64,000 nucleotides of DNA from Candidatus Cloacimonadales bacterium (GCA_963678315.1 OY782781.1:2624001-2688000), one strand, 5' to 3'. Shown: positions 6,498 to 48,949, counted from the first letter of the stretch. A program made the numbers and translations. The notes: a model not told the origin generated them from the letters alone.

Positions 6498-9400
6498 TTA
6501 AATTCTTATCCCTACAACCGTTATATCATCTCTTTGAGAATGTTGACTATGGCAATCAGAGATTGTCTTAGATAACCCATCTTTAGCAGTAGCAAGACTA
6601 ATATTTCTATGTTGATTGATAAAGTCTATGAGTCCTTTTTGTTTAAATCTTTTTCTAGCACCGTCTTCAATTACAGCCATATCATAGATTCCATCTGTTG
6701 AAAGATATAATTCAATTTGATTATCATAACTCAATTGGAAGGCTTCGAAAGGTATATCTTTTGTATCACCTATACTTCTTTTTGTACCTTTAATAACTTG
6801 TAATTTTTCATTATCTTTCCTGAGAAACATATTGCATCTAGCTCCAATAAACTCAATCTCTTTGATAGTCTTATCGATTAGAACAATGCCAATATCAAGT
6901 CCAGCTTTTAAACCTGTATCTTTATCTCTAACTAAATTCCGGATACGATTATCAATTTCTTCAAGGCATTCATTAATTGAACTAAATTTACTATCCTTGA
7001 GAACATTATTCATAATAGAATTAGCAGCAATTGTCAAAAGTGCTCCAGGAACGCCGTGTCCTGTACAATCAACAACTGCACAGATAGCCCTATCCTTGTC
7101 TATTTGATAGAACCAGATAAAGTCACCACTTACTCTATCTTTTGGAAGATAGATAGAGAAGTATTCTTTTACGAAATTGCACACCTCTTTATCAGAAGGC
7201 AAGATAGATCTCTGCAGGGTCGCTGCATAGGTTATTGAGCTATTAATAAGATTGTTACTTTTCATAACTTCCAGCTTTTCTTCTTCTAATTCCTGGGTTC
7301 GGATAAGGACTAGTTCTTCTAACTTCTCCTTTGATTTGTTTAAATATCTAACCCTATATTTAATTATGAAAATAATTAGCATAGTGACTAAAAGTAGAAC
7401 GATTAATGTGTAAATAATTATCTTAATTATGTTTGGTATAACAACAAAAGGAATTGATTTTTGTTCAATAATATTACCTGAGGGGGATAAAATTCTTAAC
7501 TTTAATGTATATCTACCTAGAGGGAGGATACCATAGTCCTTAAAATTGTTTTTACTAAAGGTAGACCAATCGTCATCATATCCTTCTAGCCAGAAGCTAT
7601 ATTCAACACTTCTAAGATTGTTTAGGGAGTTGTATGAAGCGAATACCTTCACCTTATTCTTATCTGAATACTCAAAAATAACACTTCGATAATCATTGAA
7701 TATACTTTTGTACAAACGCGTATTTAGATTAGAATATAATATTCTTGTTTGTACATTTGATTCAACAATAATACTATAATCTCCATCTGTTGGTTCTTTG
7801 AACTTGTAAACACCTCCATCCGTTACTAAAATGAATGTGTTATTTTTAAGTATTGTACATCTACAAATTTGATCAGGTAAATAGTCATTGGTATCATAAG
7901 TTGTAAACCTATCCAACTCTTCAATATATTTTAGCAAATTATGTTGTTGCACAATCCATAATTTATCATTTTTATCAACTAGTACATCCCAAATATAATC
8001 AATTTTATCTCTTTCAGAACTAGCTATTTCAATAGCTTTATCGTTCTTCAGTTGCCATACCTTGGATAGATTTCTGCAATAACAATAAACAGATTGACCA
8101 GCATGCAGCAGTTTAACTTCTTGTTTTTTTAGCAAAGGCAGGCCAATATTGATTACTTTTGAAAAATCATTATTCATACAGCCTTCTAAAGGCACTTTAC
8201 AAATACTTGTTCCACTACTATCAGGATATGTTACATACAAAGTATCGTTAAAACAATAAATGTTCGCATAGTTATTATCAGGTAGATAGATAAAGTCTTT
8301 GTAGCTTAGCGAAAAGTACTTAATATTTCCATTAGTAAGTTCAAAAGGTATTAAATCACCTTTAGGAACCCTCACAGAACTTATCGTATCGGATTTATTT
8401 ATGAGTTCTTTGACATATAATGTTCCGTTTTCAAGAAGATATACTGTTGTTGCAGAATGATAAAGAAATGTCGACTCATCTAATTTTATCTTACCAGTAA
8501 TTGTTTCAGGTATTTTTAAAGCCACCTGCATAGAATCAACTTGCTTTTCTATTTGTTTAAAATTATCTTTATGAAGACAATTGAACTCATTGATATAATG
8601 TAAATATTTATATTTCATTTCTTTGTTATTAAAATTGATTGGATATAATTTATAGTCTAAAGTATCGATACTGAGTAAACTTAATGAATCTTCAGAAACA
8701 AAATCTGCATGAACTCCATCTACAACCCTATAAAATCCTCGAATTTCATATTCAAACCTTGATTCTCTAGATGATATCATAGCTTTTAAATCTAGTACCC
8801 TAGTCCCTTCTGAGCTAAAAATGAAACATAAATCTTTATTAACATAAACTTCATGAGGGCTATCATTAAATGGATAGTCAATAATTATAAATGAAGAATC
8901 TGACTTAACAATTATTTGACTATTTTTCCTGCTTGTTAATGTTAATGAGTACTCATCTTTTTTATAATAAGACAGTTGTGTAAACCTGTAAGAACTTGCT
9001 AGCTTTTTTTTACTATTAATATCAATTGTTTTATACATAATCTCATTATCATAGTTAGGACCAGGGAAAGTATAAAATGTCTCAATTAAACCATTTTTTA
9101 GTATTTTTAGACTACGAGATATTTTTGAAATAAATATTAACTCATTATCATATTCATATAGTTTATTATTACTAGCAAAATTACGTATACCCCAAAGATA
9201 GTCTTTCCCTTCAAATTGGTTTCTAATTTTATTTATAGCAGCATCCCAATTATTGCTTATGGTAAAATACACATCCTTAGCTGTAACATCTACATCAATA
9301 ATAGTTCTATCTCCTAGTTTTTTAGCCAGATTCCTGTCTATTTTAAAGTTATCTATGTTGTACAAGCTTGTTGCAGGTTTTTTACTCTCACCAAAAATAT

Positions 9401-10331
9401 CAAAAATTACAAGACTTTCATTATTAACTTTTACAACTCTTTGTAAACAGTCATCTGCTTTAATAATAACTTTCTTTTCAATTTCTCCTTTAGATATTTT
9501 CCAAAATACAGTACTTTCCTTCGTCTCATAATACACAACAAAAGAATTGCCTTTACTTTCACATACCTTGATATCATTCGTAGATAATAACCCAAAGTCG
9601 ATTGGATATTCTGCAACCCCATTCTCTCCCCAATATAGATATTTATCTTGCAGTAAGATTAGCATGTTCCCATTACTATTGATTGTGTGTTTAATTATAT
9701 CTTTGCTGTTGGGAATTACAAACCTTGATTCACTTACTGGTAATCCATTATGGTCAATTTCACTATTTTGGTAGAAATCTTCATTATTTTCAATCCTATA
9801 TATATAAGATTCATTTTCTAAATAAATAACTTTGTTGCAATCAGAGTGTATTCTCCTTGATTGTTGTATGTTGTAGCTGCTTATTGATCTATCATTTACT
9901 AATCGTACACTTTGTCCAAAAACTTTTATATAATTATCATTTTCAAAGAAGATAATATCCCTCAATGTATCAATAACAGTCAGATCTTTTTTAATCTCTT
10001 CTTCAAAAATTTGTAGAGGATATTCTTTATAAATATGAGATTGATCAAAGAATTCATAGCCATTGAAAAAATAAAACTTATCAGGATCAGCCCCTTCTCC
10101 TTTCTTTCTAAAAATAGCAAAGTTATCTTTAGTCACTCCCACTAGTTCATCTAGAATAGGATTACCATTTTTGTGAAGAAAAGAAGTGGTGTAAAGAAAT
10201 GGTTTATCTTCTTTTGTTATATGTATAGCATTTTCATATATATCACTATATTCCGAATTTACCTCGTTAAGAGCACATTCCAGGCTAGTAAACATAAGTA
10301 TAATCAAGCAAATTAAGATTATGTGTTTCAT
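6498..10331 (-). CDS. Membrane sensor PP2C/SpoIIE phosphatase (SiaA-like): signal peptide, large extracytoplasmic region, Y_Y_Y-like domain, TM, phosphatase
   Basis: 'YSFWLEGYDDDWS' Y_Y_Y-like; TM 'IIIYTLIVLLLV'; 'VSGDF', 'DCTGHGVPGA', 'STDG', 'QRDDIT'. Confidence 0.88.
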   Translation of the reverse strand: MKHIILICLIILMFTSLECALNEVNSEYSDIYENAIHITKEDKPFLYTTSFLHKNGNPILDELVGVTKDNFAIFRKKGEGADPDKFYFFNGYEFFDQSHIYKEYPLQIFEEEIKKDLTVIDTLRDIIFFENDNYIKVFGQSVRLVNDRSISSYNIQQSRRIHSDCNKVIYLENESYIYRIENNEDFYQNSEIDHNGLPVSESRFVIPNSKDIIKHTINSNGNMLILLQDKYLYWGENGVAEYPIDFGLLSTNDIKVCESKGNSFVVYYETKESTVFWKISKGEIEKKVIIKADDCLQRVVKVNNESLVIFDIFGESKKPATSLYNIDNFKIDRNLAKKLGDRTIIDVDVTAKDVYFTISNNWDAAINKIRNQFEGKDYLWGIRNFASNNKLYEYDNELIFISKISRSLKILKNGLIETFYTFPGPNYDNEIMYKTIDINSKKKLASSYRFTQLSYYKKDEYSLTLTSRKNSQIIVKSDSSFIIIDYPFNDSPHEVYVNKDLCFIFSSEGTRVLDLKAMISSRESRFEYEIRGFYRVVDGVHADFVSEDSLSLLSIDTLDYKLYPINFNNKEMKYKYLHYINEFNCLHKDNFKQIEKQVDSMQVALKIPETITGKIKLDESTFLYHSATTVYLLENGTLYVKELINKSDTISSVRVPKGDLIPFELTNGNIKYFSLSYKDFIYLPDNNYANIYCFNDTLYVTYPDSSGTSICKVPLEGCMNNDFSKVINIGLPLLKKQEVKLLHAGQSVYCYCRNLSKVWQLKNDKAIEIASSERDKIDYIWDVLVDKNDKLWIVQQHNLLKYIEELDRFTTYDTNDYLPDQICRCTILKNNTFILVTDGGVYKFKEPTDGDYSIIVESNVQTRILYSNLNTRLYKSIFNDYRSVIFEYSDKNKVKVFASYNSLNNLRSVEYSFWLEGYDDDWSTFSKNNFKDYGILPLGRYTLKLRILSPSGNIIEQKSIPFVVIPNIIKIIIYTLIVLLLVTMLIIFIIKYRVRYLNKSKEKLEELVLIRTQELEEEKLEVMKSNNLINSSITYAATLQRSILPSDKEVCNFVKEYFSIYLPKDRVSGDFIWFYQIDKDRAICAVVDCTGHGVPGALLTIAANSIMNNVLKDSKFSSINECLEEIDNRIRNLVRDKDTGLKAGLDIGIVLIDKTIKEIEFIGARCNMFLRKDNEKLQVIKGTKRSIGDTKDIPFEAFQLSYDNQIELYLSTDGIYDMAVIEDGARKRFKQKGLIDFINQHRNISLATAKDGLSKTISDCHSQHSQRDDITVVGIRI
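6502..7243. repeat. About 740-bp near-identical duplication of the phosphatase domain (partner 10332-11073)
   Basis: Ungapped match at offset 3830, about 23 mismatches by manual count. Confidence 0.92.
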
Positions 10332-13300
10332 ATTCTTATCCCTACAACCGTTATATCATCTCTTTGAGAGTGTTGACTATGGCAATCAGAGATTGTCTTA
10401 GATAACACATCTTTAGCAGTAGCAAGACTAATATTTCTATGTTGATTGATAAAGTCTATGAGTCCTTTTTGTTTAAATCTTTTTCTAGCACCATCTTCAA
10501 TTACAGCCATATCATAGATTCCATCTGTTGAAAGATATAATTCAATTTGATTATCATAACTCAATTGGAAGGCTTCGAAAGGTATATCTTTTGTATCACC
10601 TATACTTCTTTTTGTACCTTTGACAACTTGTAATTCTTCATTATCTTTCCTGACAAACATATTGCACCTAGCTCCTATAAACTCAATCTCTTTGATAGTC
10701 TTATCTATTAGAACAATGCCAAGATCAAGTCCAGCTTTTAAACCTGTATCTTTATCCCTAACTAAATTCCGGATACGATTATCAATTTCTTCAAGACATT
10801 CATTAATTGAACTAAATTTACTATCCTTGAGAACATTATTCATAATAGAATTAGCAGCAATTGTCAAAAGTGCTCCAGGTACCCCGTGTCCTGTACAATC
10901 AACAACTGCACAGATAGCCCTATCCTTGTCTATTTGATAGAACCAGATAAAATCTCCACTTACTCTATCTTTTGGAAGATAGATAGAGAAGTATTCTTTT
11001 ACAAAATTGCACACCTCTTTATCGGAAGGCAAAATCGATTTCTGAAGGGTCGCTGCATAGGTTATTGAGCTATGCAAAGATTTTTGTTTATTAACAATTT
11101 CTAAAGTTTGTTGATCAACTAGACTAGCCAGTCTCTTCTTATCTCTATTTATTTTTTTAACTCTTCTTACAAAAAAAGCTCTAACAATTAATACTATCGC
11201 AGTAAGCAATAAGATTACATATATAACAATAATTACAATTTGTGGACCTAATCTACTAACTCTGAAAGGATAGATATCAGTCTCAATAATCTCACCATTA
11301 TCTAATTTAATTCTAGCTTGGACACTATAACGCCCTGGTTTTAAGATACCAAATTCCCTTTCAGCATTATTATTAAATTTAGGCCAGTCTGTATCATATC
11401 CCTGTAAAAAGATGGAATACTTAATATTTTTATCTGAGTAAAAACTATTACTTTTTATCCTAATTATTGTTTTCTTGTTGGAGACATATACATATCGATC
11501 AATAGTGTTCTCATTTGAAGCCTCCAAGTCCTTAAAAACATTTCCATCTTGAACAAAAGAGAAATTAAGAAATTTGTAATCTTGTTCAGGCTCATCGAAT
11601 AAAAAAAGTCCATTATTAGATGCTATGGCAATTTGCTTGTTATATGAATGAATGGAGGTAATATTGGTTGGAACTCCATAATAGGAATCATATTGTAAAA
11701 ACTCTTTACTTTGGGAGTTATATTTCAAAAGACTATTACTAGTTGAAAACCATAAGTTCCCCTCTGAATCTTTACAAGAACTTAATACTTCACCTTTGAT
11801 TTTAAAGCTTTTAATTTCATCATTCTTAAATCTATAAATGAAATTTTGATTACCATAGATAAAAACATTTTCCCCATCACTAGCAAATGATGGATCAAAG
11901 GATTTTTGCGAGAGTCTGTAGCTTTTAACCTTATCCTTAATCTTATCTAGATATGCTAGACTATCAACAGAAACAACATTTAACCTAAATTCATTGTTAA
12001 ATGTAGTATAGAATACTAAATCATCAAAACTTTCTATATAATTACCACAAAATCCTGATAGCCAAGGCTTAAAACAATATTTATTTTCAATTACATCATA
12101 TATATTTGTAGGTAAATCTGTTTTTTGTACACTAATTACAAAAATTTGTCTATAGTTTAACTTGGAAATAGCAAGTGCCAGTAAATGATTGCTATCTTTA
12201 AAATCTGTAACTAATGAATCTGTATCAGTGTTAATTAAGTAGGTCTGCCTTTTCTCATCAAATTTTAACTCAAAGTTTCCCTTTTCTTCTAGCTCAAATA
12301 CATATTTTGACAACTTTAATAAATTTTCTTTTGCTATCTGTTTAGGATAAATAGAATCTATAGAAAAAGATAATGTATCGACTAATAAAAAAGATTCTTC
12401 ACTTATCTCAATAAATCTTTTGCTTGTTTTGGGGAAAGTTACGTTTATCGAGTCAATGAAATTTTTAAAACTTTCATGTTCTCTAAGGTTTAGCTTTTCA
12501 CAAGGATGAAAAGCGATATAACTGTTATTATCTATAGAAAATAATCCCTTGTCATTTGATAAAATACTCTCAATAACTTTATCATCAAGCATTCTTATTG
12601 TGTTGTTGGAATTCTTTATTTTATAAAATGCTCTGTTAGTAAAACAGAGACTAATCTTACCAAAAGTCTGCATTAATTTGATTTCTTCCTGATGAGGAAA
12701 AATGATTAATTTACTTTCATCAAGATATTTAGTTCCAATATAAGATGTATTCTCCAGCTCTGAAACAAAAGAAAATTCATCAAAGCTTTTATAAGCAAGT
12801 TGTTTAATGACTCCAAGATTCGTGATAAGATAATTGTTCTGAGCAATAAGTAATTCATATGAGCTGTTAATATTACTTCCAATCGAAAGTGATCCTATCT
12901 TCCTTGTTATGTGACTATTAATAACAGCTGTTGTAATTAGTTCTTTTGTTGAGTCTATTTTTGGAAAAGATTTATAAGGAACTTCTTTTATTGCTTTAAG
13001 TTGTCCCTGACAATACTGAAAAATAGTTGGACCAGATGATTCTTTTTCTTTTGCTAAAATGAAGAGACTATTTTCAGCTGTGCAAAAATCATAAATTTGG
13101 TTTACTCCTAAACTTGATAATAGATCATCTTTATTTTTTATCTGCAAGTTATCTTTATCTAATAGCCAATATTTACAATAATAGTTTTCATCGTCAGTTT
13201 CGTAAAGCGTTTTAATCAAAACAATAGTATTATACTCTGGTAAGATGAAGTATTTATCAAAAGAACCATTTGCGCTGTTTTTTTGTGTTATTTTTCCAGA

Positions 13301-15074: not shown

Positions 15075-15077
15075 AAT

Positions 15078-15449
15078 CTAATAGCCAATATAATCAATAT
15101 TTAAATGAGTTTCATCAGTCAAATCTTCACCAGTCTCTTTAAGATCTTCATCATCTTCAGGATATCTCCATTTAATTTTAATTGATTTTCCAGAATCAGC
15201 CATCTCTTGAAAATACTGTATTAAATCGTAGATTGACTTATAAGAACTACTATTAAGATATTCAATATCGAATACAATTTCAGCAGAATCTTTCATTGTG
15301 AAGTATTCAGTTACCCAATTGACAACAGGTTCAAAAAACTCAAGTGTATTTTCAGGATAAGACTCACCTTCAAAAGATAAAACTTCCTTATTATAATCTA
15401 GATCTATTTTTAAGGTTTGTTCTGTTGCTTCTATATTTAAATTGTTCAT
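15078..15449 (-). CDS. SiaC-family (DUF1987) regulatory phosphoprotein
   Basis: 'GESYPEN..EFF.PV..W', 'YLNSSS.K', 'W.Y..DDED..E.GED'. Confidence 0.9.
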   Translation of the reverse strand: MNNLNIEATEQTLKIDLDYNKEVLSFEGESYPENTLEFFEPVVNWVTEYFTMKDSAEIVFDIEYLNSSSYKSIYDLIQYFQEMADSGKSIKIKWRYPEDDEDLKETGEDLTDETHLNIDYIGY

Positions 15450-16035: not shown

Positions 16036-16063
16036 ATTATTAGTTTAGATTATTTTTTGTCAA
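16036..16063 (-). promoter_or_regulatory. Putative sigma70 promoter upstream of siaB-like gene
   Basis: TTGACA-16 nt-AATAAT on minus strand. Confidence 0.5.
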
Positions 16064-42300: not shown

Positions 42301-45300
42301 TTAGCATACTTAAGTTTGACCATGATAATTGAACTTGATTATTTTCTACACTTGCACTTAAGTTTGTTGGAGAATAAAGATTTCCTTCCCACCCATTTTC
42401 ATGATAAAGACTAAGCATTTCTTCTTCATCTATGACTGTGTTATAAAATCTGATGTCATCTATACATCCAACAAATGGACTACGCATGCCGTGACTAGAA
42501 TTATTATTAGCACCTATTGCAAAAGTTCTTGTATTTAAATTATTTATTGTTGAAACTGTCTCATCAATAATGTTATTATCAAACTCACCATCAATATAAA
42601 GTTCTAACATATTTGAATCCGCATTTCTAAGATAAACAATATTATGCCAATAATTATCATTAACAATAATACTAGATTCAAGAGCTATATCATTGTGGTT
42701 GTCATCTCGTAAATAAACTTGTAATTTCCCGTCATTAAGTATTTTATAGGAAAATTCTTGATGATTTGATTGCTCAAAACCTGCTATGTAAAGACCTAGA
42801 CTCTCTATTCCGCATTTAATCCACATACTAACACTAAATGAATCATTTTGATTGTAGATAGGAGCTAAAGTTGTAGATATAAAATCTGTTCCATCAAAAC
42901 TAAAAGCAGAGTTTTCTTGGTTAAATCTATTAGTACAAGCACTTGCTCCATTATTAAGTCCATTTAAATTATTACCACTTAAATCATTGACATTACCATC
43001 TAAAGGATAATATGCAACTAAAGGAGATTCAGCAACATTAAATGACCACACCGTTGCTAGACTGTCTGCAGTTTCACCTGTAGTATTTCTGCAGACTACC
43101 TTCCAGTTGTAAGTTGAACCAGGATTTAAGTCTGAGATACTATACTCTTCCACTGCTTCAACATTATCAAGAAGTTTTGCCATCTCTCGCCCACCTGATT
43201 CACCAAACCAAAGATCTATTGTCTCGGTATAATCAGCATTTCCCCATGTCAGTGTCACTGATGTAGAATCTATCTGACTACTATTAGCAGGATAAGGATT
43301 AACTGCTGCTAAAGGAAGTGGAGATATTATAGGAGTTGCAGTTAAGTTGATTGTATAATCAATTGCTTGAGGACTTGGGTAAGTTGATATAATCAAGAAG
43401 TAAGTACCAGCTGGTAAAGCTTCTGCTGTGTATGTTAAGGTAGTAGATGAAGTAGTTTTTTGAATTTCAACTGCAGCAGGAGTTGCTGCATTTGGTTCGT
43501 CTGCAAGAATAAATGCTCCCATCCAAGAACCTGTTGTAACTATTGTACCATCAAGAGTTACATCTGTAGCAAGAGTGAATTGATAAACAACATCGTCACC
43601 ATTAAGATAATTTGAATTAGGAGAAATCATATTAGAACTATAATCATCACCAAAGTCACCTGTGTTTCCTGCTACATCAACAGCAGGAAAAGTTAATACT
43701 AAAGGATCGTAACATATTGAACCTGTAGGAGGGACAAAACCATTACCAGTTAAATTAACAGTATAAGTGCCGATTTGAGTATTATCTGTAATTATTAATG
43801 TAGCTGTTTTGTCCCCTGCAGAAGTAGGGCTAAATGTAACATTTAATTCAACCATTTCATTTGCTAAAAGAGTATCTGGCAGAGTAATACCATCAAAAGT
43901 AAACATTCCAGCATCACTTCCAGAAATTTCAACATTGCTAACTATTAGCTCACCAGTACCAACATTCGAAAAGTTAAATGATTGAGTAATAGAAGTTACA
44001 CCAACATTAACTTCACCAAAAGCTAATTCTGTTTCAGTAACTTGACCGATAGGTTCTTGAGGGATAGCTTCGAAAGCAATATCATCAAGATATACAAAAT
44101 CATTAATTCCACCGAAGATAGGTCTAAATACTAATCTTTTGTTAGTCATGCTAGTATCAAATTCATAGATAAATTGTGTATAAGTTAATGGCACATCTAT
44201 TGTGTCAATAGCTGTTAATACATCCATACTTGCATCGTAGAGAGCAAATATTAATTGACCTTCAGTATCACCTTTCATCCAGAATTTAGCTCTGTTTCCA
44301 TTAAAGTCAGGGACTATTACAGGAGAAATAAGCATCATATCTGCATCTTGGTCACTAGAATCATAGAATTCTATTGATTTAGAACCAGTGTGGGCATTTG
44401 TTGGGCTAGTATCTACAGTGATTGCAGCATAAGATGAAGTTGTTTGGATATTATTTTCCCATCCAATGAAAGAATCATTTTCTTCAAAACTATTAGTATA
44501 TGGTAAACCTTCAGCATAGATATTTGTATCTATTGAGTTACCAACAATAGCAACAGTATGAACTGCACGTTGGTCATCTGTAATTTCGATAGTTGCAGTA
44601 TGGTCACCTAATGTCTCAGGACTAAAAGCAAGAGTGAATGATAAGATTTCACCAGTTGATAATGTGTCAGGGTAAGTATTACCATCAACTAAATCAAATT
44701 CTACTGCATTAGTACCTGTAAGTGCAACGCTTGCAATTACAAGATCACCATGACCTAAGTTACTTACAGTTACAGTTTGAGGATCACTAGCTGTATCCAT
44801 AACTTGATTAGCAAATGTAAGAGTATCTGCACTTACACTGAATACAGGTTCTTGTGCAACTTCTTGGAAATTAAAACCACTTACAGGGATATAAGCTTTA
44901 AGAGAGCCTTGAGGTACTGTTGCCCATGTTTGGTCTTGTGCATCATAGTAATCAGAGTCGTATATAGATCTATTACCTTCAACTGGGTATGTATAGAAGT
45001 CATCACTATATGAATGAGAACCTGAACTTGTTTCGAAAACACAAACAACAAGGTTGTCAACGTTGTTGTAAATAAATGGTGTATCTAAAACAAGATTAAC
45101 TATTGGAACATCAGTAGTAGTTTCTAATTGACCATCATAAACTTGAGTTAATCCAGTAATAACCCAATCATAAGAATCTGAGAATGTTTCTTTATTTGTA
45201 TGACCCATATAAATAACAACATTATCAGTCCATGCAGAATTATTGTCATAAAGATATGATATATCAGTAATTGAGTGATTATCAATATCTAATTCAGATT

Positions 45301-48300
45301 GATAGTAAATTGATTGAGATACATAATATGAATATCCTGCATCAATTGGTAAAGCAGGATAAGTTCCTCTATCACCATCAAAAACTAGATCGGCTGTAGG
45401 GAATGGATTAGCAAGAGTCTCAAATTGCCAAGTTTCCACTCCTTCAGTAGCTGAACCAAGAATGTTGTAAGGAATGACTTTCCAATAATATCTTGTGCCA
45501 TAATCTAAATTAGAATATGTATAAGAGTTAGTAGTAACATCTACTGCAGTTAGACCCGCAAATGTTTGGTCTGTTGAAAGGTATACATTGTAACCTGATG
45601 CACCCATAGCTTCTTCCCATTCAAGACTACCAGTTCTAGCAATATCAGTTCCTAAACTATTAGGAGAAAGGTATTGAACAGCATCAGGAACAACACCGAT
45701 AGTAGTAAATGACCAAGTTGCTACTGAATCAGCAGGAGTTTGACCGCTAAGGTTTTTACAAACAACTTTCCATTCATACTCTGTGTCAGCAAACAAATTC
45801 ATAGCAGAATATTCTTCTGTTGCAACAATATCTTCTTCAACAAGAACCATATTACCAGCTTGACCGAAATAGATATCATTCATTGTTGTCCACTCAGCAT
45901 TAGTCCATTGTAAAGTAACAGTAGTAAGTTGTTCCACAGCATCATCTTCTGGAGTTGGAGCAGTTGCTTGCATTGGTGCAGGGATATCTTCTAAATCAAT
46001 TTGTACTTGATAGTCTCCAGATGCAGTACCATAACCAGCAACAACTATATAGTAATCACCAGCTTGGGCAAGCGATTGGTTCATTTTTGACCAAAGGCCT
46101 CTATCTCTTGTTTTTGGACCTTCAACAAATCTTCCACCTGTACCAGCATCAGTTTCATCATCATTATAATACCATGCATCTTCATTTTGAGTTGCTTCTT
46201 CTATTTGAGTAAGTGAGTTGAATACCCACATTTTTGTATCGAAAGGAGAATCAAGTAATGATATTGTCATCAATCTATCAGTTTCTAAAGTAAGCCTATA
46301 AACAACGTCTTGTGAAGTTGTAAAGTCATAATCTGAATTATATATTGTTGTAGTACCTTCTGCATAAATTGAATCAGCATAAGTTAATACAAATGGGTCA
46401 TTATGTGTATCACCTATATCATCAAGTACTTCACAGGTAATTGGAATAGTATGAATTATTGGTAAAAATGGGTTACCTGGATTTTGTTCTTTAATAACTA
46501 AAGTAGATTCGTGGTCACCAATATATGATGTTAAACCTCTAGGGTAAACAATAATACTTGAACCTGGTTCAAGTGAGTATGGTAATGTTTCTTCATAAAG
46601 AACTTCGAAGTTATTGTCATCACCAACTGAGATTTCAGTAATTAGGGCTTCAGCTGCACCTGTATTTGTGATTGTTACCAGAACTGAATCAGCAACAACT
46701 TCATTTTGTAAGTATAAACCACAATCAACAGAATCTGGTACGAATGATATTTGAGAACCTTCAGGAACTTCTTCAATTAATATATCATCAAGATAAACAT
46801 TATCATAAGTTCCATCAAAATTAATATCGAATACAATTTTATCATTAGAACGTGTTGGATCCATGTTTACAGCATATTCTGCAAAAGTAGATGTAAGCTC
46901 TAATGAGTCAAGTTCTGTTAATTCATCACTTGTGTTCAATCTTCCAAGTCTGATGTATCCATCACCTTTTGCCCAGAAACGGATTCTATAAGGATCTAAT
47001 TCAGGAACTATTGTTGGAGTAATTAATCTAACAAGTGAACCTGAGTCAGAATGGCTATATGCTTTATAACTGAAATCACCAGACTGAGAAGTTCCTTCAT
47101 TTCTTACCCCGTAAGCATCACCTGTAGAAGTAACTTCTGTTTCCCAACCTAGGAATTCGTCAGCAACTTCAAAACCTTGAGTATAATTACTTTCTAAAGT
47201 ATAAATAGTTGGATCTAAAGCATCACCAGTTAAAGCAATATTATAAGCATCACCTTGATCATGATTAATTACTAAAGTTGCTGAATGTGATCCAACTGTT
47301 GTAGGTTCATAAACAACATTAGCGATATATGAGAATCCAGGACCTATTGATGTAACAGCATTATCAGTGAATGAGAATTGTGTAGCATCAGTTCCAGTAA
47401 TTTCAACAGTTCCAACTTCAATTAATCCACCACCAATATTAGTAAGTGATACTACTTGAGAATCACTTTGGCTGTTTATAACATGAGTATCAAAAGCTAA
47501 TGCTTCAGTGTTAATAACAGGTTCAGGTATTGTAGGAATTTCACCTAATGTAAAAGCTGTTACTGGAAGTTGTGATTTCAAAGTACCAGTAGGGAAGTTT
47601 CCAAATCCTAGAGCATAAGGATTTGTTCCATCAGCATGATAATGTAATGATCTATTATCCTCAATGCTAAAAGCATAAAATTCATCTGAACTTGTGTGAT
47701 ATCCTGATGTAGTTTCAAATATACAAACAACAAGATTATCAACATTATTGTAGATAAAAGGCATATCAAGTTCAAGAGTAACTAATGGATTATCAGCTGA
47801 AACAACCATGTCACCATTAAAAACTTCAGTTAATCCATCATTAAACCAATCACTTGTAGCATTAAAAGCAGTTGAACCAGTATGTCCCATATAGATAACT
47901 ACATTATCTGTAAAAGAACTATTTGGATTTTGATTAAATACATAAGTAATTTCTGTAATTGTTTGATCAACAATATTTAATTCAGATTGTAAATAAATAC
48001 TTTGAGTCAAAGAGTAACCATAAAATGGTTCAATAGGTAGACCTGTATTTGTTAAGTAGTCACCAGTAAGAACAACTTGGTCTTCACTAAATATAGTTGT
48101 TGTAAAAGTACCTTCATTTTCTATTTGTAATGCTGCAGATGTATTAATCGCAACAACTTTCCAATAATATGTTGTATTTAAATCTAAACCACTATAAGCA
48201 TAAGGTGATGTTGCACCTTCAACCATTGTAGCATCAGTAAAATCAGCATTGTCAGCTAAAATTAAATTTATACGATCTGTGTTTTCACCAATAGTCCATT

Positions 48301-48949
48301 CTAAGTTGCCAGAAGTAGCTACATTGTTAGCACCATCAGCAGGAGATGTTAGTTCTGGCATTGCAGGTTCATTAGCCAATTCCCAAACAACTTTTGTGTT
48401 AGGGTAGTAATCAGCACCGGTACCGTTTGTTTCAGGGAATGAGCCATCAGCATACTTGTATGCACCAGCACCTGTTGCAGTTGTTCTATAAAATAAAGGA
48501 TAACCTGATGCATAAGAGCCATCACGATTTTCCCAGATAATTTCAATGTTTGAAGTTCCATCATAAGCAAATGGTGTATCTAAAGTAACACCTTGCCATC
48601 CTGAACCTGTCCATGTTAAATCACCAGTCCAAACTTGACTATAAGAACTTAAATCTGAAACATAATCAGCAGTAACTGTAGTTTCTGTAGTTAATTTCAT
48701 ATATAGAGTTTGACTATTAGTTTCATAACCTGAAGGTGTATTTGAAACATTAAATTGGATTTCAGTAATATCTATTGCAGAAGTAACAGCATCACCAGGT
48801 AAAATGAAATGTGACCAACTATTATCATAATATCCATATAGTGGTAGATAGCTAGTAGGTGATGTTTCCTCACCTATTGTAGCTGAAGCAGCAAACAAAG
48901 CTGATAAAGTAAAAACAAATAGCGTAAGCACTAAAATAACTTTCCTCAT
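24353..48949 (-). CDS. Giant (8198 aa) secreted modular surface protein/adhesin: FN3-like, choice-of-anchor D (ASH-type Ig), cleaved-adhesin-like, LamG, GLUG, PKD, TolB-like propeller, cadherin-like, beta-helix
   Basis: Signal peptide 'MRKVILVLTLFVFTLSALFA'; PKD 'WDFGDG'/'WDFENDG'; LamG 'F.G.LDDIRIYN'; GLUG 'VGGLVG'; 'WSPDYSKIAY'; uninterrupted 24.6-kb ORF with GGAG SD. Confidence 0.9.
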   Translation of the reverse strand: MRKVILVLTLFVFTLSALFAASATIGEETSPTSYLPLYGYYDNSWSHFILPGDAVTSAIDITEIQFNVSNTPSGYETNSQTLYMKLTTETTVTADYVSDLSSYSQVWTGDLTWTGSGWQGVTLDTPFAYDGTSNIEIIWENRDGSYASGYPLFYRTTATGAGAYKYADGSFPETNGTGADYYPNTKVVWELANEPAMPELTSPADGANNVATSGNLEWTIGENTDRINLILADNADFTDATMVEGATSPYAYSGLDLNTTYYWKVVAINTSAALQIENEGTFTTTIFSEDQVVLTGDYLTNTGLPIEPFYGYSLTQSIYLQSELNIVDQTITEITYVFNQNPNSSFTDNVVIYMGHTGSTAFNATSDWFNDGLTEVFNGDMVVSADNPLVTLELDMPFIYNNVDNLVVCIFETTSGYHTSSDEFYAFSIEDNRSLHYHADGTNPYALGFGNFPTGTLKSQLPVTAFTLGEIPTIPEPVINTEALAFDTHVINSQSDSQVVSLTNIGGGLIEVGTVEITGTDATQFSFTDNAVTSIGPGFSYIANVVYEPTTVGSHSATLVINHDQGDAYNIALTGDALDPTIYTLESNYTQGFEVADEFLGWETEVTSTGDAYGVRNEGTSQSGDFSYKAYSHSDSGSLVRLITPTIVPELDPYRIRFWAKGDGYIRLGRLNTSDELTELDSLELTSTFAEYAVNMDPTRSNDKIVFDINFDGTYDNVYLDDILIEEVPEGSQISFVPDSVDCGLYLQNEVVADSVLVTITNTGAAEALITEISVGDDNNFEVLYEETLPYSLEPGSSIIVYPRGLTSYIGDHESTLVIKEQNPGNPFLPIIHTIPITCEVLDDIGDTHNDPFVLTYADSIYAEGTTTIYNSDYDFTTSQDVVYRLTLETDRLMTISLLDSPFDTKMWVFNSLTQIEEATQNEDAWYYNDDETDAGTGGRFVEGPKTRDRGLWSKMNQSLAQAGDYYIVVAGYGTASGDYQVQIDLEDIPAPMQATAPTPEDDAVEQLTTVTLQWTNAEWTTMNDIYFGQAGNMVLVEEDIVATEEYSAMNLFADTEYEWKVVCKNLSGQTPADSVATWSFTTIGVVPDAVQYLSPNSLGTDIARTGSLEWEEAMGASGYNVYLSTDQTFAGLTAVDVTTNSYTYSNLDYGTRYYWKVIPYNILGSATEGVETWQFETLANPFPTADLVFDGDRGTYPALPIDAGYSYYVSQSIYYQSELDIDNHSITDISYLYDNNSAWTDNVVIYMGHTNKETFSDSYDWVITGLTQVYDGQLETTTDVPIVNLVLDTPFIYNNVDNLVVCVFETSSGSHSYSDDFYTYPVEGNRSIYDSDYYDAQDQTWATVPQGSLKAYIPVSGFNFQEVAQEPVFSVSADTLTFANQVMDTASDPQTVTVSNLGHGDLVIASVALTGTNAVEFDLVDGNTYPDTLSTGEILSFTLAFSPETLGDHTATIEITDDQRAVHTVAIVGNSIDTNIYAEGLPYTNSFEENDSFIGWENNIQTTSSYAAITVDTSPTNAHTGSKSIEFYDSSDQDADMMLISPVIVPDFNGNRAKFWMKGDTEGQLIFALYDASMDVLTAIDTIDVPLTYTQFIYEFDTSMTNKRLVFRPIFGGINDFVYLDDIAFEAIPQEPIGQVTETELAFGEVNVGVTSITQSFNFSNVGTGELIVSNVEISGSDAGMFTFDGITLPDTLLANEMVELNVTFSPTSAGDKTATLIITDNTQIGTYTVNLTGNGFVPPTGSICYDPLVLTFPAVDVAGNTGDFGDDYSSNMISPNSNYLNGDDVVYQFTLATDVTLDGTIVTTGSWMGAFILADEPNAATPAAVEIQKTTSSTTLTYTAEALPAGTYFLIISTYPSPQAIDYTINLTATPIISPLPLAAVNPYPANSSQIDSTSVTLTWGNADYTETIDLWFGESGGREMAKLLDNVEAVEEYSISDLNPGSTYNWKVVCRNTTGETADSLATVWSFNVAESPLVAYYPLDGNVNDLSGNNLNGLNNGASACTNRFNQENSAFSFDGTDFISTTLAPIYNQNDSFSVSMWIKCGIESLGLYIAGFEQSNHQEFSYKILNDGKLQVYLRDDNHNDIALESSIIVNDNYWHNIVYLRNADSNMLELYIDGEFDNNIIDETVSTINNLNTRTFAIGANNNSSHGMRSPFVGCIDDIRFYNTVIDEEEMLSLYHENGWEGNLYSPTNLSASVENNQVQLSWSNLSMLTNLQSYKVYRDSIEIASTSDTTYTDLDLNNGDYQYYVTAVYSTGESEASNIVSVTIEEFALAGQGTEESPYQISSLVDLRFLSETPELWNQNYHFIQTADIDATDTQNWNNGAGFSPIGDYLNDNDNRRFTGSYNGQNYIISNLYINRPSTSQIGLFGCTTQANLDNISLINVNILGSNAVGGLLGLNSNSSHVSSSCATGEVIGMGVAVGGLVGSNYSNSTILSSYASVAVSSMDVTVGGLVGFNGYSSSISNSYATGTVSGSEKVGGLVGSNYSSTILNSYATGSVSGSVNIGGLVGRNSSSSISNSFWDTETTGQASSAGGGTGLTTAQMQDINTYLNAGWDFVNESDNGTDDIWVAVNNDYPHLSLEDGYSDYLYAPTNLTATVDNSDVLLSWSNLSIFDEHQSYKVYRDTLEIASTTDTTYTDSALDNGDYQYYVTAVYSTGESEASNSQDVTINMLDADFIASDTLSYINQEITFTNQSNGNITSYLWDFGDGSTSDEENPSHIYTNIGRYTVTLQISNVENEDVVTKTEYINILSQLDYGLIAYYPFNNGDLADISGYNNNGSNYGATPTIDRFGIDNRALEFNGSSSWLKVNNSNSLNINGQNSITINAWVYPTRVSGVYGYQGLVHKWGPSGSSDDQYAFELLATGKFRFHASDGQGSHFDIRSNTIAEVDNWYHVVCIYNAENNYAQLFVNGEFEVEEIWEGLSINNTNRYLEIGRNDGDGNYDDRYFQGKLDDIRIYNRPLSESDVTELYQEGGYEPPITFVADFIVDNETVVYGTELTFTDQSIGNITSWEWDFENDGEIDSTEQNPVWEYSRPGIYSVSLTIKDGTNESNMTKSGYVIVESNIDNPEDAIFLYSKKVNGIYQVFKSDATFANDIQLTYSLDNSYSPCWSPDYSKIAYKSYTTGATNSSLHVCDADGSNDTVIISNINIGLMTWHNDNQRIIYRTGVSSSEDIIKIIDIDGNNNQSFIDHVNDKDLAPNMNRMNSNQLVYIFDYGNWSPSRNIYIRDNINGTDTNIYPSNGKSDYRPLFSPDGTKVLFIETDNSYTGNNDLKYIDLSDNSVHVLHETSGSYKSMFANYLNFQGDVIYHLFDGDNPSVTYLCNAEGNSIELFKEDPTFRIWDVQFPVPLFAPTNVVTSINESNVNLTWTDMAGIANFTEYKIYRDSIEIASTSDTTYTDLDLDNGDYQYYVTAVYSTGESEASNNQDVTINMLEADFIASDTLSYINQEITFTNQSNANITSYLWDFGDGSTSNEENPIHTYSEAGNYSISLTINSIISSDQVIKNDYIQVLDEVLLISEDFENGDLNEQIEIATNGTFNYYPGIKEITNFGSAHAFGFGRSTQGASAFENFGTNMRIVFDSPTHIDHIRYKEMELYGNWGSSGYIKLDGEILPNFYIGNSPSNDHSADTIYRQREVEINEFVTELIIRVRDITTSSEIFIDDLVISTNPNMLNADFIANNTNIYEGTEVLFTNQSNGNITSYLWDFGDGTTSTEENPVHTYQESGLYTVTLTVSNDDVTQVKTKENYITVNYLNYPPVLTIPDTISFDEDTAMALDFNPYMEDNNPDADLELTVTGNDSINITINENNLVTFSAPENWYGSEIVEFYLDDHIDSRELRDVDTQEVLVVVSPVDDEPIVANPITWFGMSSGPFGDSGIINLSNVFSDVDSDIISYEAEFSGYIASTIVSNTISGDVITIETDGSMVGTGIGNVTAYTNTGQSVTDTFTIELIAEPICALLPETIEATVAVGELYYSSVRIANDGTAPLVWNVNPFSSSEWIEVSTMNGLLEAGQFIDLDLTFNAADLSAGDYNGSLRFDHNGTMGSVYDLNVNLTVEGLPEISCNTQNIDFGDVYVATSKILPLTIYNHGENDLVINNITSSSNSFSVNFTTFTIPANQNRIVNVEYVPVVSGVDNSVLSIYSNDFNNNPYSVNLTANSIEPPEMSVEYDDSEIYTLGNNLVNSSITLFNSGTSELNYNLDANESWLSFSPFMGQIDPGDSLHVLITVNGTSLDTGLNQGSFQLSSNDPNNESVTYNINIFKEIYNFTTYDNFGNHGQEESDNDLDVEIGYNSQNAPVDFLIHSNNPNPESATLLIRAYNVQSNNGGNHIVKFNGHEIGRLLGMSDSWSTTIFDIDPEILTSTLVNNVTIIVDNDFVGNNIIVDWGQLSYNDAALNASIRYIEMDKDSYYPGAIVSVTEEIDSNLSNQDIRVETSIFDPNNILVSSASRSLTIYNTQNDAFIETLDIAEQFSPGSYILRTLVFDSNSNLQQTSFERDFLVKDYDSEIAVNVDELDFGMVLSGENKVLTLRISNQGHSDLVIDDITFSNSNFTAMNDVIVIPYNNCYDLEVMFNPTSIDEYSGTMSIQSNSANNSVTIITLSGAGIANVPYIQVSEETLIFEDTYTIVPETKYVTVSNVGPANLTIDNISVSNNVYTLDNNYSGIQIGSNENITIGVEFLPTTNTNYTDNLIITSNADNEPMKVINLIGNGVIAPQVSLNPNSLDIQMNSGQSFNQEITLSNPDDNELLWSIDSNFGNSLRTHGFTRSEADFVTIDNRPAIQLNGGEFALEFWFKVDSHLGQLSNGNIANGGTQYLISKSNTSDIGFFGVYTQGLNKNLNVSLNNGQIRNYNISDNIELDQWYHLAISYSNNQLSAFLDGQKTLEREVTDFNGNQSQWILGKLSASSNYWYRFDGFLDEFRIWSSALDFNLIQNRMNCKLTGLESNLVGYWNFDNNDLDDMTAYQTDGNMHGQVNFEESDINSIPEWLTFSQNYGSCLGGESSNVEVSVDGNGLIGGTYNIDVSVNSNDPDEPIIYLPINIEVTGIPSIEITSQDMIFDNGYVNSVDTCSVLITNNGTDYLDISSISCDQPSIFIPQQSSFYIPANESRRLVVNFLPTEETLYSGTLSLITNAPGQETIGISLEGEGLLAPSILIDSYAINQELASGEVISDNLVISNTQGEDLLFSIDVEEVLSRNMIDGEFENTPTSNKGMVWVDGYLYIVSYSQAKVYKYDIDTETLVSQYPIHTTPFGITYDGSNFWIGSSSGTVYCYDNSFGLLDQFNNPLFNNPAITFNGDNLLIVPSQLVNPQIYYVSISGEIIDSQSTYFNGRMNQIVWVADHQDCELWALDYQDQIIRQFNSSTLDCTGELEYDYFDSASYALAHNGKDLWISDDSSLSSKLYRIDDGIEEFNWISVNPSSGTVSNGSNTNVNLTFNSRNLLAGNYQAKLIIDSNDVNNPREIIPIELSVTGEAEIVVETNIIDFGTIFNGQIDTRTVTIGNNGSSSLIVDNISIDNSDFSVDETSFVVQPHSTCQIQVAFAPLSSQDYDSNLQIYSNDINNPISIIELNAVSIGEPEVSISNSDLSLQLNTNSEGNSTFRINNNGNSNLDFSIYLNETSSNIRDLSGEYSDCIERAPLGFYADLSQNYVSLPIDELVNDYDNSRFIGDYNDSFTGIPNFNSGIYWLNGYLFVVVTNGAEAGTLIKYDVENSSIVQSYPIHTQPYGIAYDGDYFWVGSQSGNVFGYNIESLNSEANLPIGSFTCPFNYSPAITFDGNYFIVTKSFSDDYYTTIYRIDHSGSIIDTYSAAIGDCVSQLVWVEQYSGKELWGIRNTLENSSYTSGNIVQLSLANHSILVIQEKEYYDTSIIYSFTNDGKDFWISDLNGPLVKVDDGIWLSTNVVSASLQAGDFVDVDITMDANNIFGGEYSGTISVLTNDPQNPISLINASMNVTGQAVAQVSDENHNFGEVAVNETVEYQVNVENSGDDQLNIENVFFSGDVDEFTSTTTSLVISSSSSDNIDVSFTPSSNSDFNSIMHIQTNAGNYEVSLTGIGYNPPIISLSEENLTSSLTFGESEIKYLTISNVGDRMLDYNISVNSEIRQSLNTARNNVNTSTWINIDQTEGELASGTSETININISAEQLYAGTYNANIVIDNNSLESTKVIPVQLIVTGSPAISIENRTIEYSPTLIGNSSVETLTISNNGSSVLQISSIMIDNEEFTVYPSSSNIQAGNEKTFSIAFTPTSSGSKEGVLTVNSNDINNRQINVNLEGQAIVAEAEIALSETSLNFGDVNIGDNLIKDFKIYNQGTGILRINGIEIDHPDFVSSTNASPEHTLNIQPGSYANVNVTYQPSIAGEITANIAITSNATNSTSENISLYGQGLNVPIINVNKSYLYWSILDNTLNYDDFVVQNTGNAELSYSFSQATLNIPWLSFNPVTANVSPGESQLITVTIDTRELDYGSLYENIVVNSNDPDNEVVTIHATLNHSNWNFTDSDNAGNGFVANPDNDLNQDISSNDVNAPVEFIIYTNESEVNYAKLRISAYDIDSNEVDYVFLNGNYVGNLIGASNRNTITEFMVDSDIINLGENVSNNIQIELDVNNTSSGTSRINWGQLELNQIPYNAAISNLSLDSSSYYPSETISLSTSLTSRVYNQEVTETIKIMDVEGNVVSQISNLHELSSNSPLVNNYEIPIPETLAIGDYTVLTEIYDFETSIKQDEASVNFSILTDTPSIVIANSLDFFSTYIGYPRSKNIQLTNDGFTPLEITNITVNSDYVSIDSYPELVLNGANESIMLTYNPQEAGILNAVLEIETNDPETPVKEVSLHGISTIAPEIETSSVNISISIPRFETTETSFVVSNTGGSDLIIQSITIDDTSWLSCGNYNSTIQAGDSQTITLDINSFDTNQGIYNNNLVIKTNDPELSNKVISLNMVVLERLVTANFSGSPLTGYTGLEVAFNNLSQTSDGTEIISYEWDFENDGEVDSFEEDVTHVYNQRGTYSIRLKVINENGISHELIRENYVTVDNSIPELVAAMPDIAFNEDTINETLVLNDWFTDEDGDNLAYSFYTNNNLSVSNNNGNLRIVPDEDWFGIADLIIIANDNHQGIAQDTIQVTVNAVSDAPVIFDLPEEITLLQNTTSVIDLSNHVYDPEQGLSLLTITIAGNQHISSQITGLEAELEAPSDWVGRETITISVSDGTGRLLASTELDIQVIDSYNVQFEADLIDILGGQEIQFTDLTVGNHNYWEWDFENDGFIDSYEQHPTYIYNFSGVYSVSLTVKYIDENDVVVDSGFETIDDYISVEGTGIPGAEYAGSWELINSPYNVYGEVSITNNLEIESGVVINFLEDTNFLVSGSLVADGVTFDVYDESREVTKWQGFKFLSSDTQSHLSNCTIKNAEKVFEITNSSPTLEHITIEGSGSLLPAIKLYGNSQAVIDDIDISGYGSAMDIRGDSSDEIPIMTNVRVRHTTNTRPVESFAVKLEKSNINISDLLVEGFDQGIIIKGDVDSAPVLTNVRVRHTTNTRPLDSYAVKILGRSAPHFTGLYVDDYADPIILGTEDDVVPVLTNVRIRHTTNTRELGNTAVKLSPNQKVIVDSLHVENYKYGIFCDNSEGNIKPLQHFKNVVIEKDHNLVFEESAGFKFIGKMDLEVSNLEVVNMNDGINIYSDEEIAPVLTNVRVRHTTNTRQYGSYGVKMIGKIKATIDTLNVKDCEKGIYYENTNSSDVYISYLRKANISLTTGDYPSNFVGIELHGKMKLYIENSDIVDVTNGIEIYSDEEIAPVLTNVRVRHTTNTRENTGTGIYLTEGVNALVRDCTIEGFNTGLMVNSVNTSDIYNNSIIGNYTAFSLSASGCTPSIHNNHIENTSNMNGPCFNTTAISGIDIMNNNILGYNNIVYGEDSVINLSQNIIWNSSLSNNNLSSGTNLSTSFEYNDISMESGIAQGLGNINSDPMFDTSIPDSYMLTVYSPCIDAGNPNNPYDNDDSIADIGMNYYHHLAEYNSDRRFTTVGESIGFTNLSEGHDLQETSVTWDFGDGTISHERNPYHTYNNVGIYTVTLTMETGLITDVLFREGFTVNQSIPLEAPNNMQISFENGNPSISWDPVSEDINGDSVVNPNYLVYCCDDPSGIYEYKANVLTTNWIDSNPLDVDKTRFYFVIAFSSGARESLDEFIRTHRYMTRNGLVVKKKLK
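25538..26552 (-). repeat. Five copies of peptide repeat P-x-[LM]-TNVR[VI]RHTTNTR in the beta-helix region
   Basis: Copies near 25538, 25865, 26192, 26351 and 26507. Confidence 0.9.
38496..42273. repeat. Near-identical FN3/PKD DNA repeats inside giant gene
   Basis: 38496-38724 matches 40782-41010; 38658-38778 matches 42153-42273. Confidence 0.88.

Follow-up and report, generated by a model that had tools for sequence, protein, structure and literature searches.

Ten genes read in the same direction occupy much of a 64,000-nucleotide (nt) stretch of DNA from a Candidatus Cloacimonadales bacterium (GCA_963678315.1, OY782781.1:2624001-2688000; hereafter the window). They encode a giant surface protein of 8198 amino acids (aa), an ABCG-type exporter, two proteins that bind cyclic nucleoside monophosphates (cNMP1 and cNMP2), a STAND cyclase, homologs of SiaB and SiaC, a second cyclase and two sensor phosphatases. 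The question raised by this locus is whether all ten genes serve one cyclic AMP (cAMP) pathway that deploys the giant protein, as had been proposed from the sequence alone, or whether several systems have come to lie together. Domain searches with Pfam and NCBIfam confirmed the identities given to the genes in that proposal, and all ten open reading frames (ORFs) were found on the minus strand between 6498 and 48949 (Table 1). The source genome, G000, is a single contig of 2.99 Mb with a G+C content of ~30%, in which the window is C1:2624001-2688000; we compared 41 genomes, with relatives coded G001 and so on. Our analysis suggests a cAMP-signalling supercluster composed of three modules that are inherited separately: module A (giant protein and STAND cyclase), module B (exporter, cNMP1 and cNMP2) and module C (SiaB, SiaC, a CyaB-like cyclase and the phosphatases).

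In the mechanism that we propose, two envelope-spanning phosphatases, which carry different periplasmic beta-propeller/Y_Y_Y sensors and near-identical PP2C domains, would dephosphorylate phosphorylated SiaC at Ser67. Free SiaC would then bind the cyclase dimer at its N-terminal stalk and turn on cAMP synthesis, and SiaB would re-phosphorylate SiaC. Module B would read cAMP through cNMP2, which has an intact cassette, with cNMP1 as its degenerate partner, and these two proteins would gate the exporter via its TerB-like/FHA-like cytoplasmic N-terminus. The output would be post-translational control of export, and the STAND cyclase, encoded in the exporter operon, would provide a second cAMP source in G000. 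We consider this account, the three modules together with their proposed mechanism, modestly probable. The analysis shows domain identities, catalytic residues, conserved gene order and the common stalk module; we infer every binding and regulatory step.

The Sia-type switch and the adjoining CyaB-like cyclase

The sequence-only reading had drawn an analogy with Sia signalling, and this analogy proved to be homology. SiaC matched PF09345 with 115.2 bits (cut-off 24.5) and the equivalog model NF038265 with 84.3 bits, under its cut-off of 150, and it aligned with P. aeruginosa SiaC (6KKO_C, E-value 2.4e-16), with YLNSSS placed opposite YLNTSS. In this sequence alignment, Ser67 lies opposite Thr68, the residue phosphorylated in P. 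aeruginosa; G009 and G010 have Thr at this position, and G016 has Ser. The SiaB-like protein matched DUF6272 (119 bits) and the NCBIfam SiaB family NF038262 (129.5 bits, cut-off 85), and aligned over its whole length (residues 4-170) with P. aeruginosa SiaB (6KKO_A, E-value 2.9e-11).

Both phosphatases matched SpoIIE above its cut-off (64-66 bits), and also Y_Y_Y and Reg_prop, whose Pfam scores were around or under the cut-offs. The layout of these proteins includes an N-terminal hydrophobic segment, a Reg_prop/Y_Y_Y region of ~900 aa, a transmembrane segment and the PP2C domain; transmembrane-like segments were found at residues 3-29 and 949-985 of phosphatase a and at residues 1-24 and 959-997 of phosphatase b. 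The SiaA model NF038263 (658 positions, cut-off 700) scored 168.8 bits with phosphatase a and 182.9 bits with phosphatase b, and covered only the C-terminal 260-280 aa of these proteins (residues 999-1260 in phosphatase a). At the DNA level, the last ~740 nt of the two genes are ~97% identical (tracts in Table 1), and ungapped identity in 60-nt bins was 0.90-1.00 over the last 720 nt and ~0.3 upstream. This pattern looks like gene conversion maintaining one phosphatase output behind two diverged sensors. A locus in G009 (L020, G009:C1:2344000-2363999) has a single SiaB-SiaC-cyclase trio flanked by five genes for SiaA-like phosphatases of 880-1344 aa, suggesting that many sensory inputs converge there on one switch.

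The gene after SiaC matched Guanylate_cyc with 100.5 bits and had no GGDEF match in Pfam. The catalytic domain of its 316-aa product aligned with P. aeruginosa CyaB (3R5G) over 189 residues (E-value 5.8e-55), and D101, K141, D145, T218, N225 and R229 aligned with residues of CyaB that we take to be the two metal-binding Asp, the substrate-binding Lys and Thr, and the transition-state Asn and Arg. Four of these (D101, D145, N225 and R229) are invariant across seven SiaC-linked cyclases. The presence of two cNMP synthases in the block, as claimed earlier, was upheld, with both resembling adenylate cyclases in alignments to CyaB (3R5G) and ADCY10. We also considered cGMP as the product and found it unlikely, since the nearest relatives of known structure make cAMP and a Lys/Thr pair is present in the 316-aa enzyme.

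SiaC homologs were detected in 14 of the 41 genomes, G000 included. Among the 14 SiaC loci of the 13 relatives, the order SiaB-SiaC-cyclase followed by one or more phosphatases was kept in three (G016, G009 and G010), and in all of the other 11 the next gene encodes a PAS-HisKA protein or a histidine kinase. The cyclase-type module C is present in 4 of the 41 Cloacimonadales genomes and also in other phyla. Most Cloacimonadales SiaC partners are PAS-HisKA proteins of ~330 aa with no HATPase match in Pfam at E ≤ 1e-4 (L013-L022). A wider scan, with one genome per species, returned 80 SiaC loci, 74 of which had a scannable downstream ORF. These ORFs were histidine kinases (27), GGDEF proteins (22), class III cyclases (5), Pkinase (3), SpoIIE (3) and DUF6272 (3) proteins, other HATPase proteins (2), and sequences unrelated or with no family (9). 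Two of the five class III cyclases were from Cloacimonadota, two from Desulfobacterales and one from Acidobacteria.

A profile of the N-terminal stalk was built from residues 22-80 of the seven SiaC-linked cyclases and used at a threshold of E ≤ 1e-3. It matched the N-termini of most SiaC-downstream GGDEF proteins (19/22) and histidine kinases (19/27), all three Pkinase proteins, both other HATPase proteins and one of the three SpoIIE proteins, and none of the nine sequences unrelated or with no family. Only 21 of 2515 other ORFs in the SiaC loci were matched, and 19 of these 21 lie on the same strand as SiaC and start downstream of it. Three of the 11 Cloacimonadales PAS-HisKA/kinase partners passed the threshold, and nine did so at E ≤ 1e-2. 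On the evidence of this profile, the N-terminal stalk of the cyclase is a module common to enzymes encoded beside SiaC. A search of the PDB with the cyclase stalk (95 aa) returned coiled-coil proteins only, at E ≥ 0.3, and no SiaD.

A study of P. aeruginosa (PMC8457831) describes binding of SiaC to the stalk of SiaD, with Thr68 inserted between the stalk helices. Structure prediction for a complex of two cyclase chains with SiaC gave a score of 0.55, compared with 0.00 for the best control, which lends weak support to similar docking here. At least 95% of the contacts agreed between runs, and the predicted local distance difference test score (pLDDT) of the partner was at least 88. Of 157 solved complexes, 116 reached the mark applied to such predictions, as did 2 of 215 mismatched pairs; with scores of 0.60 or less, only 18 of the solved complexes passed, along with both of the passing mismatches. 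The pass of the SiaC-cyclase prediction may also reflect likeness to the solved SiaC-SiaD complex.

Judged from its sequences, module C would work in the manner of a Sia system, yet it is no SiaABCD system. It shares with the P. aeruginosa proteins (6KKO, 6K4F, 7E6G) a SiaB-family kinase, a SiaC protein (DUF1987) in which a phosphorylatable residue stands at the place of Thr68, candidate SiaA-like PP2C phosphatases and an output enzyme that has an N-terminal helical stalk and is encoded directly after SiaC. However, the output here is a class III adenylate cyclase, whereas SiaD is a GGDEF diguanylate cyclase; the putative phosphosite is Ser instead of Thr68; and two phosphatases of ~1270 aa with periplasmic Reg_prop/Y_Y_Y sensors are encoded behind the cyclase, whereas SiaA leads its operon. 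The cyclase has the metal, substrate and transition-state residues of the CyaB catalytic domain, but its N-terminus is a soluble helical stalk of ~90 aa, whereas that of CyaB is a membrane MASE2 domain. In the phosphatases, Reg_prop/Y_Y_Y regions precede a transmembrane segment as in the hybrid two-component systems of Bacteroides, in which these sensor domains bind oligosaccharides; there the sensor is coupled to a histidine kinase, in contrast to the PP2C phosphatase found here.

Taken over these comparisons, the wiring of a Sia switch to an adenylate cyclase appears well supported. To our knowledge, the only role that experiments have established for Sia-type partner switches is control of cyclic di-GMP synthesis in Pseudomonas, and a literature search, thin on subscription journals, found no published account of a SiaB/SiaC switch acting on an adenylate cyclase. 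In the window, the same switch would act on an adenylate cyclase with the common, putative docking stalk, and in neighbouring lineages on histidine kinases, Ser/Thr kinases and diguanylate cyclases, which points to the Sia switch as a general plug-in controller of signalling enzymes.

The exporter operon, the STAND cyclase and the giant protein

The exporter of module B matched ABC_tran (114 bits) and ABC2_membrane (62 bits), and TIGR00955 with 249.8 bits, under the cut-off of that model. A word-indexed sequence search with its residues 1-380 returned the query alone. A structural model of this region, made with 16 homologs (pLDDT 76.6), contained a helical domain and two beta domains. In VIA-align, the best structural match of residues 298-379 was the FHA-2 domain of Rv1747 (Z 7.8, rmsd (root mean square deviation) 3.5, 73 residues); most of the 50 rows of structural matches for the exporter N-terminus were FHA domains, and TerB-like proteins were matched as well (Z 7.6 for 2OU3, and 7.3). 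The cytoplasmic N-terminus (380 aa) is a candidate combination of TerB-like helices and an FHA-like beta domain, as modeled. Rv1747 of M. tuberculosis (PMC3138270, PMC5549992) is an ABC exporter with FHA domains that is reportedly under the control of the kinase PknF. The window exporter is likewise ABC-2/ABCG-like, with a cytoplasmic, putatively regulatory N-terminus in the same chain; unlike Rv1747, it has no sequence-level FHA match, its TerB-like helical domain comes first, and its neighbors are two cNMP-binding proteins instead of a Ser/Thr kinase.

Both small proteins of module B matched cNMP_binding (PF00027, cut-off 27.5), cNMP1 with 29.8 bits and cNMP2 with 44 bits; cNMP2 also matched CRP and TIGR03896 models, both under cut-offs. 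The phosphate-binding cassette of cNMP2 is canonical, GELNFTIPxHR[ST]A, in all six orthologs, and that of cNMP1 is without the conserved Arg in all six. The trio of exporter, cNMP1 and cNMP2 was found in 6 of the 41 genomes (G000, G009, G010, G011, G017 and G024), which represent three families, and the cNMP pair was present in 2 of 16 exporter-paralog loci checked. In all, G000 has four cNMP-binding ORFs of 134-189 aa, none with a further Pfam domain. The other two, of 189 aa and 167 aa, lie at L143 (C1:1429000-1432500) and L144 (C1:1827500-1831000); one directly adjoins an AI-2E family transporter, and the neighbor of the other is a K+ channel with an RCK domain. A membrane transporter or channel gene is present at three of the four loci with cNMP-binding ORFs. 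A PF00027 search of the genome found no CRP-type cNMP regulator. This pattern suggests that cAMP in G000 acts on membrane transport proteins, with no route to transcription, and cAMP control of the exporter is plausible.

The STAND cyclase is one of seven class III cyclases encoded in G000. It matched Guanylate_cyc (54 bits) and TPR_12 (87.6 bits), and AAA_16 under its cut-off (20.1 bits). Residues 37-117 and 216-386 aligned to the C1 and C2 domains of the human soluble adenylyl cyclase ADCY10 (4CLF, E-value 1.4e-19), corresponding to ADCY10 residues 41-123 and 281-456. The metal-binding Asp residues are retained in the first domain, and the Lys, Asn and Arg in the second; D43, D93, K268, N342 and R346 are invariant in 11 homologs, as are the Walker A residues G431, G434, G436 and K437, and D550. 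Lys89 aligns with the bicarbonate-binding Lys of soluble adenylyl cyclase. As in ADCY10, there are two cyclase domains per chain, followed here by a P-loop NTPase module and TPR repeats; full-length soluble adenylyl cyclase also has a P-loop/TPR C-terminus. The two differ in that the window enzyme has Gly at the position of the substrate-contacting Thr, and in having a gene for a giant surface protein as a conserved genomic neighbor. A soluble-adenylyl-cyclase-like enzyme was reportedly described in Chloroflexus in 2004, and our literature search on bacterial soluble adenylyl cyclases with STAND and tetratricopeptide regions found nothing related. Orthologs with 42-46% identity were detected in G001, G003, G005, G007, G010 and G011. 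A metagenome scan with the STAND cyclase alone gave no relative; with the STAND alignment it gave 80 loci, of which 14 were examined, including ten full-length homologs (L146-L155).

The giant protein is the only ORF of at least 5000 aa in G000, a genome with 112 ORFs of at least 1000 aa. It contains PKD, Laminin_G_3, HYDIN/ASH-type Ig, GLUG, BACON and NosD-like beta-helix domains and one N-terminal hydrophobic segment (residues 1-26); adhesin is a putative label for it. Its last 1000 aa had no Por_Secre_tail or CHU_C sorting domain (Pfam E ≤ 5, NCBIfam E ≤ 0.01). Elsewhere in the window (59125-60801, minus strand), a 558-aa protein has a Cleaved_Adhesin domain and a C-terminal sorting domain of the type IX secretion system (T9SS). 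Because that protein bears the sorting domain, the organism has T9SS cargo, and the giant protein is without a recognizable domain of this kind.

Giant orthologs are 7259-7668 aa long in G001, G003, G005 and G007, and at least 6893 aa in G010. In five of six loci fetched, the giant ortholog lies directly upstream of the STAND ortholog, and the sixth locus ends at a contig end; identity of the paired giant orthologs was 43-46% over 1500-3100 aa. Flanking genes are not common to these loci, and no other gene of the window is present there. In all six related loci examined for it, the giant-like gene is ended by a strong hairpin, followed by a CTTGCC/CTTGAC-like box before the cyclase, and the pair is therefore a conserved neighborhood, not an operon. 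The arrangement recurs at 28-32% identity in G013, where a STAND cyclase is preceded by a gene for a 2926-aa protein that shares the C-terminal ~900 aa of the giant protein, and it is seen again in metagenome locus L153. G000 itself has a paralogous pair, in which a 1021-aa beta-helix protein with a T9SS sorting domain is encoded upstream of a STAND paralog. At 11 of 13 loci with other STAND homologs, there was no co-oriented giant-like gene directly upstream.

The locus of the paralogous pair (L145, G000:C1:533000-546000) has, on one strand, genes for a sigma-54 response regulator, the 1021-aa protein and the STAND paralog. ORFs of 123 and 181 aa beside a STAND paralog have the sizes of SiaC and SiaB, and were rejected as such, as BLASTP gave no similarity to either at E ≤ 10. 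In G010, the spacer between the giant and STAND genes is 878 nt long (L034, 9255-10134, C316) and contains inverted and repeated segments.

Separate distribution of the modules and competing explanations

Modules B and C co-occur in G000, G009 and G010. In G009 they adjoin, with a 249-nt gap from which the genes for the exporter and the first Sia-type phosphatase diverge, and this genome had no match to the C-terminal 1899 aa of the giant protein (E ≤ 1e-40) and no STAND ortholog. All three modules are present in G010, on separate short contigs, and a repeat breaks the contigs between exporter and Sia operon (start of L023). Modules A and B were found in G011, and B together with a kinase-type Sia module in G017 and G024. 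In G000, the trio of module B sits between the terminator of the giant gene and the STAND gene, which leaves the STAND cyclase at the end of the exporter operon, and module C follows. Independence of the units among relatives had been named in advance as the finding that would tell against a single system. The three modules are indeed separable, but two linkages are real, that of the giant protein with the STAND cyclase and that of exporter and cNMP genes with the Sia-cyclase genes. The link between B and C is moderately supported.

Several observations weigh against three modules joined by a cAMP circuit. Module A occurs with neither B nor C in G001, G003, G005 and G007 (no SiaC match and no ABC/cNMP ortholog), cyclase-type module C stands alone in G016, where no B was found, and in G011, G017 and G024 no cyclase-type Sia module accompanies B. 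Desulfobacterales and Acidobacteria had neither cNMP-binding nor ABCG genes among the ORFs scanned in the middle 14 kb of their SiaBC-cyclase loci. G000 has seven cyclase genes, and the signal read by cNMP1 and cNMP2 could come from any of these. The monomer model of the CyaB-like cyclase had a pLDDT of 56.2 and was usable only for the long helix at residues 24-69, and in the STAND cyclase the substrate-contacting Thr of soluble adenylyl cyclase is replaced by the Gly mentioned above. For the FHA assignment, residues 1-380 of the exporter had no Pfam match at E ≤ 5, FHA included; Foldseek with the N-terminal model returned nothing at E ≤ 0.001; and all structural matches of this region had Z < 8, a level rated common by VIA-align. 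The pairing of the STAND cyclase with a giant gene must be seen against the 10% of G000 genes that have an immediate neighbor of at least 1000 aa.

The same distribution would fit mere juxtaposition, in which the three modules are independent and each cyclase serves receptors encoded elsewhere. We regard this explanation as unlikely. In its favor, relatives carry the modules independently of one another, other phyla have no cNMP-binding or ABCG genes near their SiaBC-cyclase loci, and G000 is rich both in cyclases and in ORFs of at least 1000 aa. Against it, B adjoins C in G000 and G009, which represent two genera, the B operon of G000 includes the STAND cyclase at a gap of only 8 nt, and two of the seven cyclase genes of G000 flank two of its four cNMP-binding ORFs.

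One integrated pathway, in which sensors, Sia switch, both cyclases, cNMP proteins and exporter together govern how the giant protein is produced, exported or displayed, is the form in which the block had been read before, and we find it rather unlikely. The ten genes are contiguous and co-oriented in G000 and in a related strain of another study, the conserved neighbor of the giant gene elsewhere, the STAND cyclase, is joined to the exporter/cNMP operon, and G031 encodes a 1500-aa protein that shares the C-terminal beta-helix region of the giant protein, with an exporter paralog ~2.7 kb downstream. But four genomes have the giant and STAND genes with neither B nor C, G009 has B and C with neither a match to the giant C-terminus nor a STAND ortholog, a strong terminator follows every giant gene examined, and a CRP-type regulator was not found in G000; in addition, ABCG-type exporters are not known to transport proteins. 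The claim of a single system that deploys the giant protein was not supported, and a link from cAMP to the giant protein has adjacency as its sole support.

A more elaborate circuit would also be post-translational and would serve the cell surface. Here, glycan-sensing phosphatases would act through SiaB/SiaC on the CyaB-like cyclase, the STAND cyclase would be a second input linked to the giant protein (e.g. sensing precursor or secretion load via its TPR repeats), and the exporter with its FHA/TerB region, gated by cNMP1 and cNMP2, would carry a lipid or glycan cargo needed to anchor or mature the giant protein; as an addition, the FHA-like domain would read phosphorylated SiaC, giving each state of the switch a target. 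We consider this full set of steps quite improbable. Least probable is peptide or bacteriocin-type export by the exporter/cNMP trio, with a cNMP-binding accessory and unrelated to surface structures: cNMP2 matched TIGR03896 (E-value 2.7e-10, 40.1 bits), but this score is far under the family cut-off of 161, the transporter is of the ABC-2/ABCG type (TIGR00955, PF01061) and not a peptidase-containing type I transporter, and no precursor-peptide gene was noticed, though none was searched for.

The locus brings candidate cAMP sources, candidate receptors and a candidate effector together in an uncultured phylum. The window adds a SiaBC-cyclase module paired with a cNMP-receptor/exporter operon, a soluble-adenylyl-cyclase-like cyclase captured into that operon, and a conserved neighborhood of giant protein and STAND cyclase. 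A conserved partner of a bacterial enzyme of this type could be a handle on the role of its STAND/TPR half.

Layout of the locus and neighboring genes

Features of the locus are listed in Table 1. The exporter, cNMP1, cNMP2 and STAND genes form a tight operon, with overlaps of 1 and 7 nt followed by the 8-nt gap, and so do the genes for SiaB, SiaC, the cyclase and phosphatases a and b, which overlap by 4 nt at the first and last junctions and lie 3 and 13 nt apart at the two in between. These units are separated by 575 nt between the giant and exporter genes and by 130 nt between the STAND and SiaB genes, and the hairpin begins 19 nt past the giant stop codon (24334-24305). Given the hairpin and these two gaps, the division into three units made in the sequence-only reading stands; its putative promoters fared less well, as promoter-like sites in the region numbered 126 compared with 117.9 expected from shuffled sequence, which is no enrichment.

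Table 1. Positions of the genes and sequence features of the locus, counted from the first nucleotide of the window
Feature	Positions	Strand	Basis
Giant secreted/surface protein, 8198 aa (module A)	24353..48949	-	ORF, translation
Terminator-like hairpin	24305..24334	-	13-bp stem, T-rich tail
ABCG-type half-transporter, 1033 aa (module B)	20676..23777	-	ABC_tran, ABC2_membrane
cNMP1, single-domain cNMP-binding protein, 139 aa (module B)	20257..20676	-	PF00027
cNMP2, single-domain cNMP-binding protein, 134 aa (module B)	19859..20263	-	PF00027
STAND cyclase (soluble-adenylyl-cyclase-like), 1242 aa (module A)	16122..19850	-	Pfam, ADCY10 alignment
Promoter-like site TTGACA-16 nt-AATAAT, in the 130-nt gap before SiaB	16036..16063	-	11/12 consensus positions; consensus match only
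SiaB-family protein kinase, 181 aa (module C)	15446..15991	-	DUF6272, NF038262
SiaC phosphoprotein, 123 aa (module C)	15078..15449	-	PF09345
CyaB-like class III adenylate cyclase, 316 aa, in the SiaD slot (module C)	14124..15074	-	Guanylate_cyc
SiaA-like sensor phosphatase a, 1260 aa (module C)	10328..14110	-	SpoIIE, Y_Y_Y, Reg_prop
SiaA-like sensor phosphatase b, 1277 aa, diverged sensor region (module C)	6498..10331	-	SpoIIE, Y_Y_Y
3' end of phosphatase b (PP2C domain), near-identical tract	6498..7240	-	DNA identity, repeat family D1
3' end of phosphatase a (PP2C domain), other homogenised copy	10328..11070	-	DNA identity, repeat family D1

Contigs of an independent study span the STAND, cNMP2, cNMP1 and exporter genes (19566-21767) and the SiaB and STAND genes (15623-16172). 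Because they bridge both junctions, the gene order is real and not an assembly artefact; these contigs come from four DNA runs and inform on presence and order only. At 20179-22426, contigs of high depth (25-45x, compared with 3-7x for the locus, in all four runs) join parts of the exporter gene to other sequence, and probably represent conserved ABC segments from another organism of higher abundance.

No match to Rfam was found anywhere in the window at gathering thresholds. The CTTGCC/CTTGAC-like box recurs 40-100 nt before start codons, just past terminator hairpins; it was found before 23777, 15991 and 6166, and before the STAND genes in L030-L034 and L040, and may be a -35-like promoter element of this lineage. 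Divergent from the giant gene, the plus strand at 49808-57784 encodes a bacterial alpha-2-macroglobulin (1889 aa) and then a PBP1C-type penicillin-binding protein (768 aa), which we take to be a known conserved gene pair.

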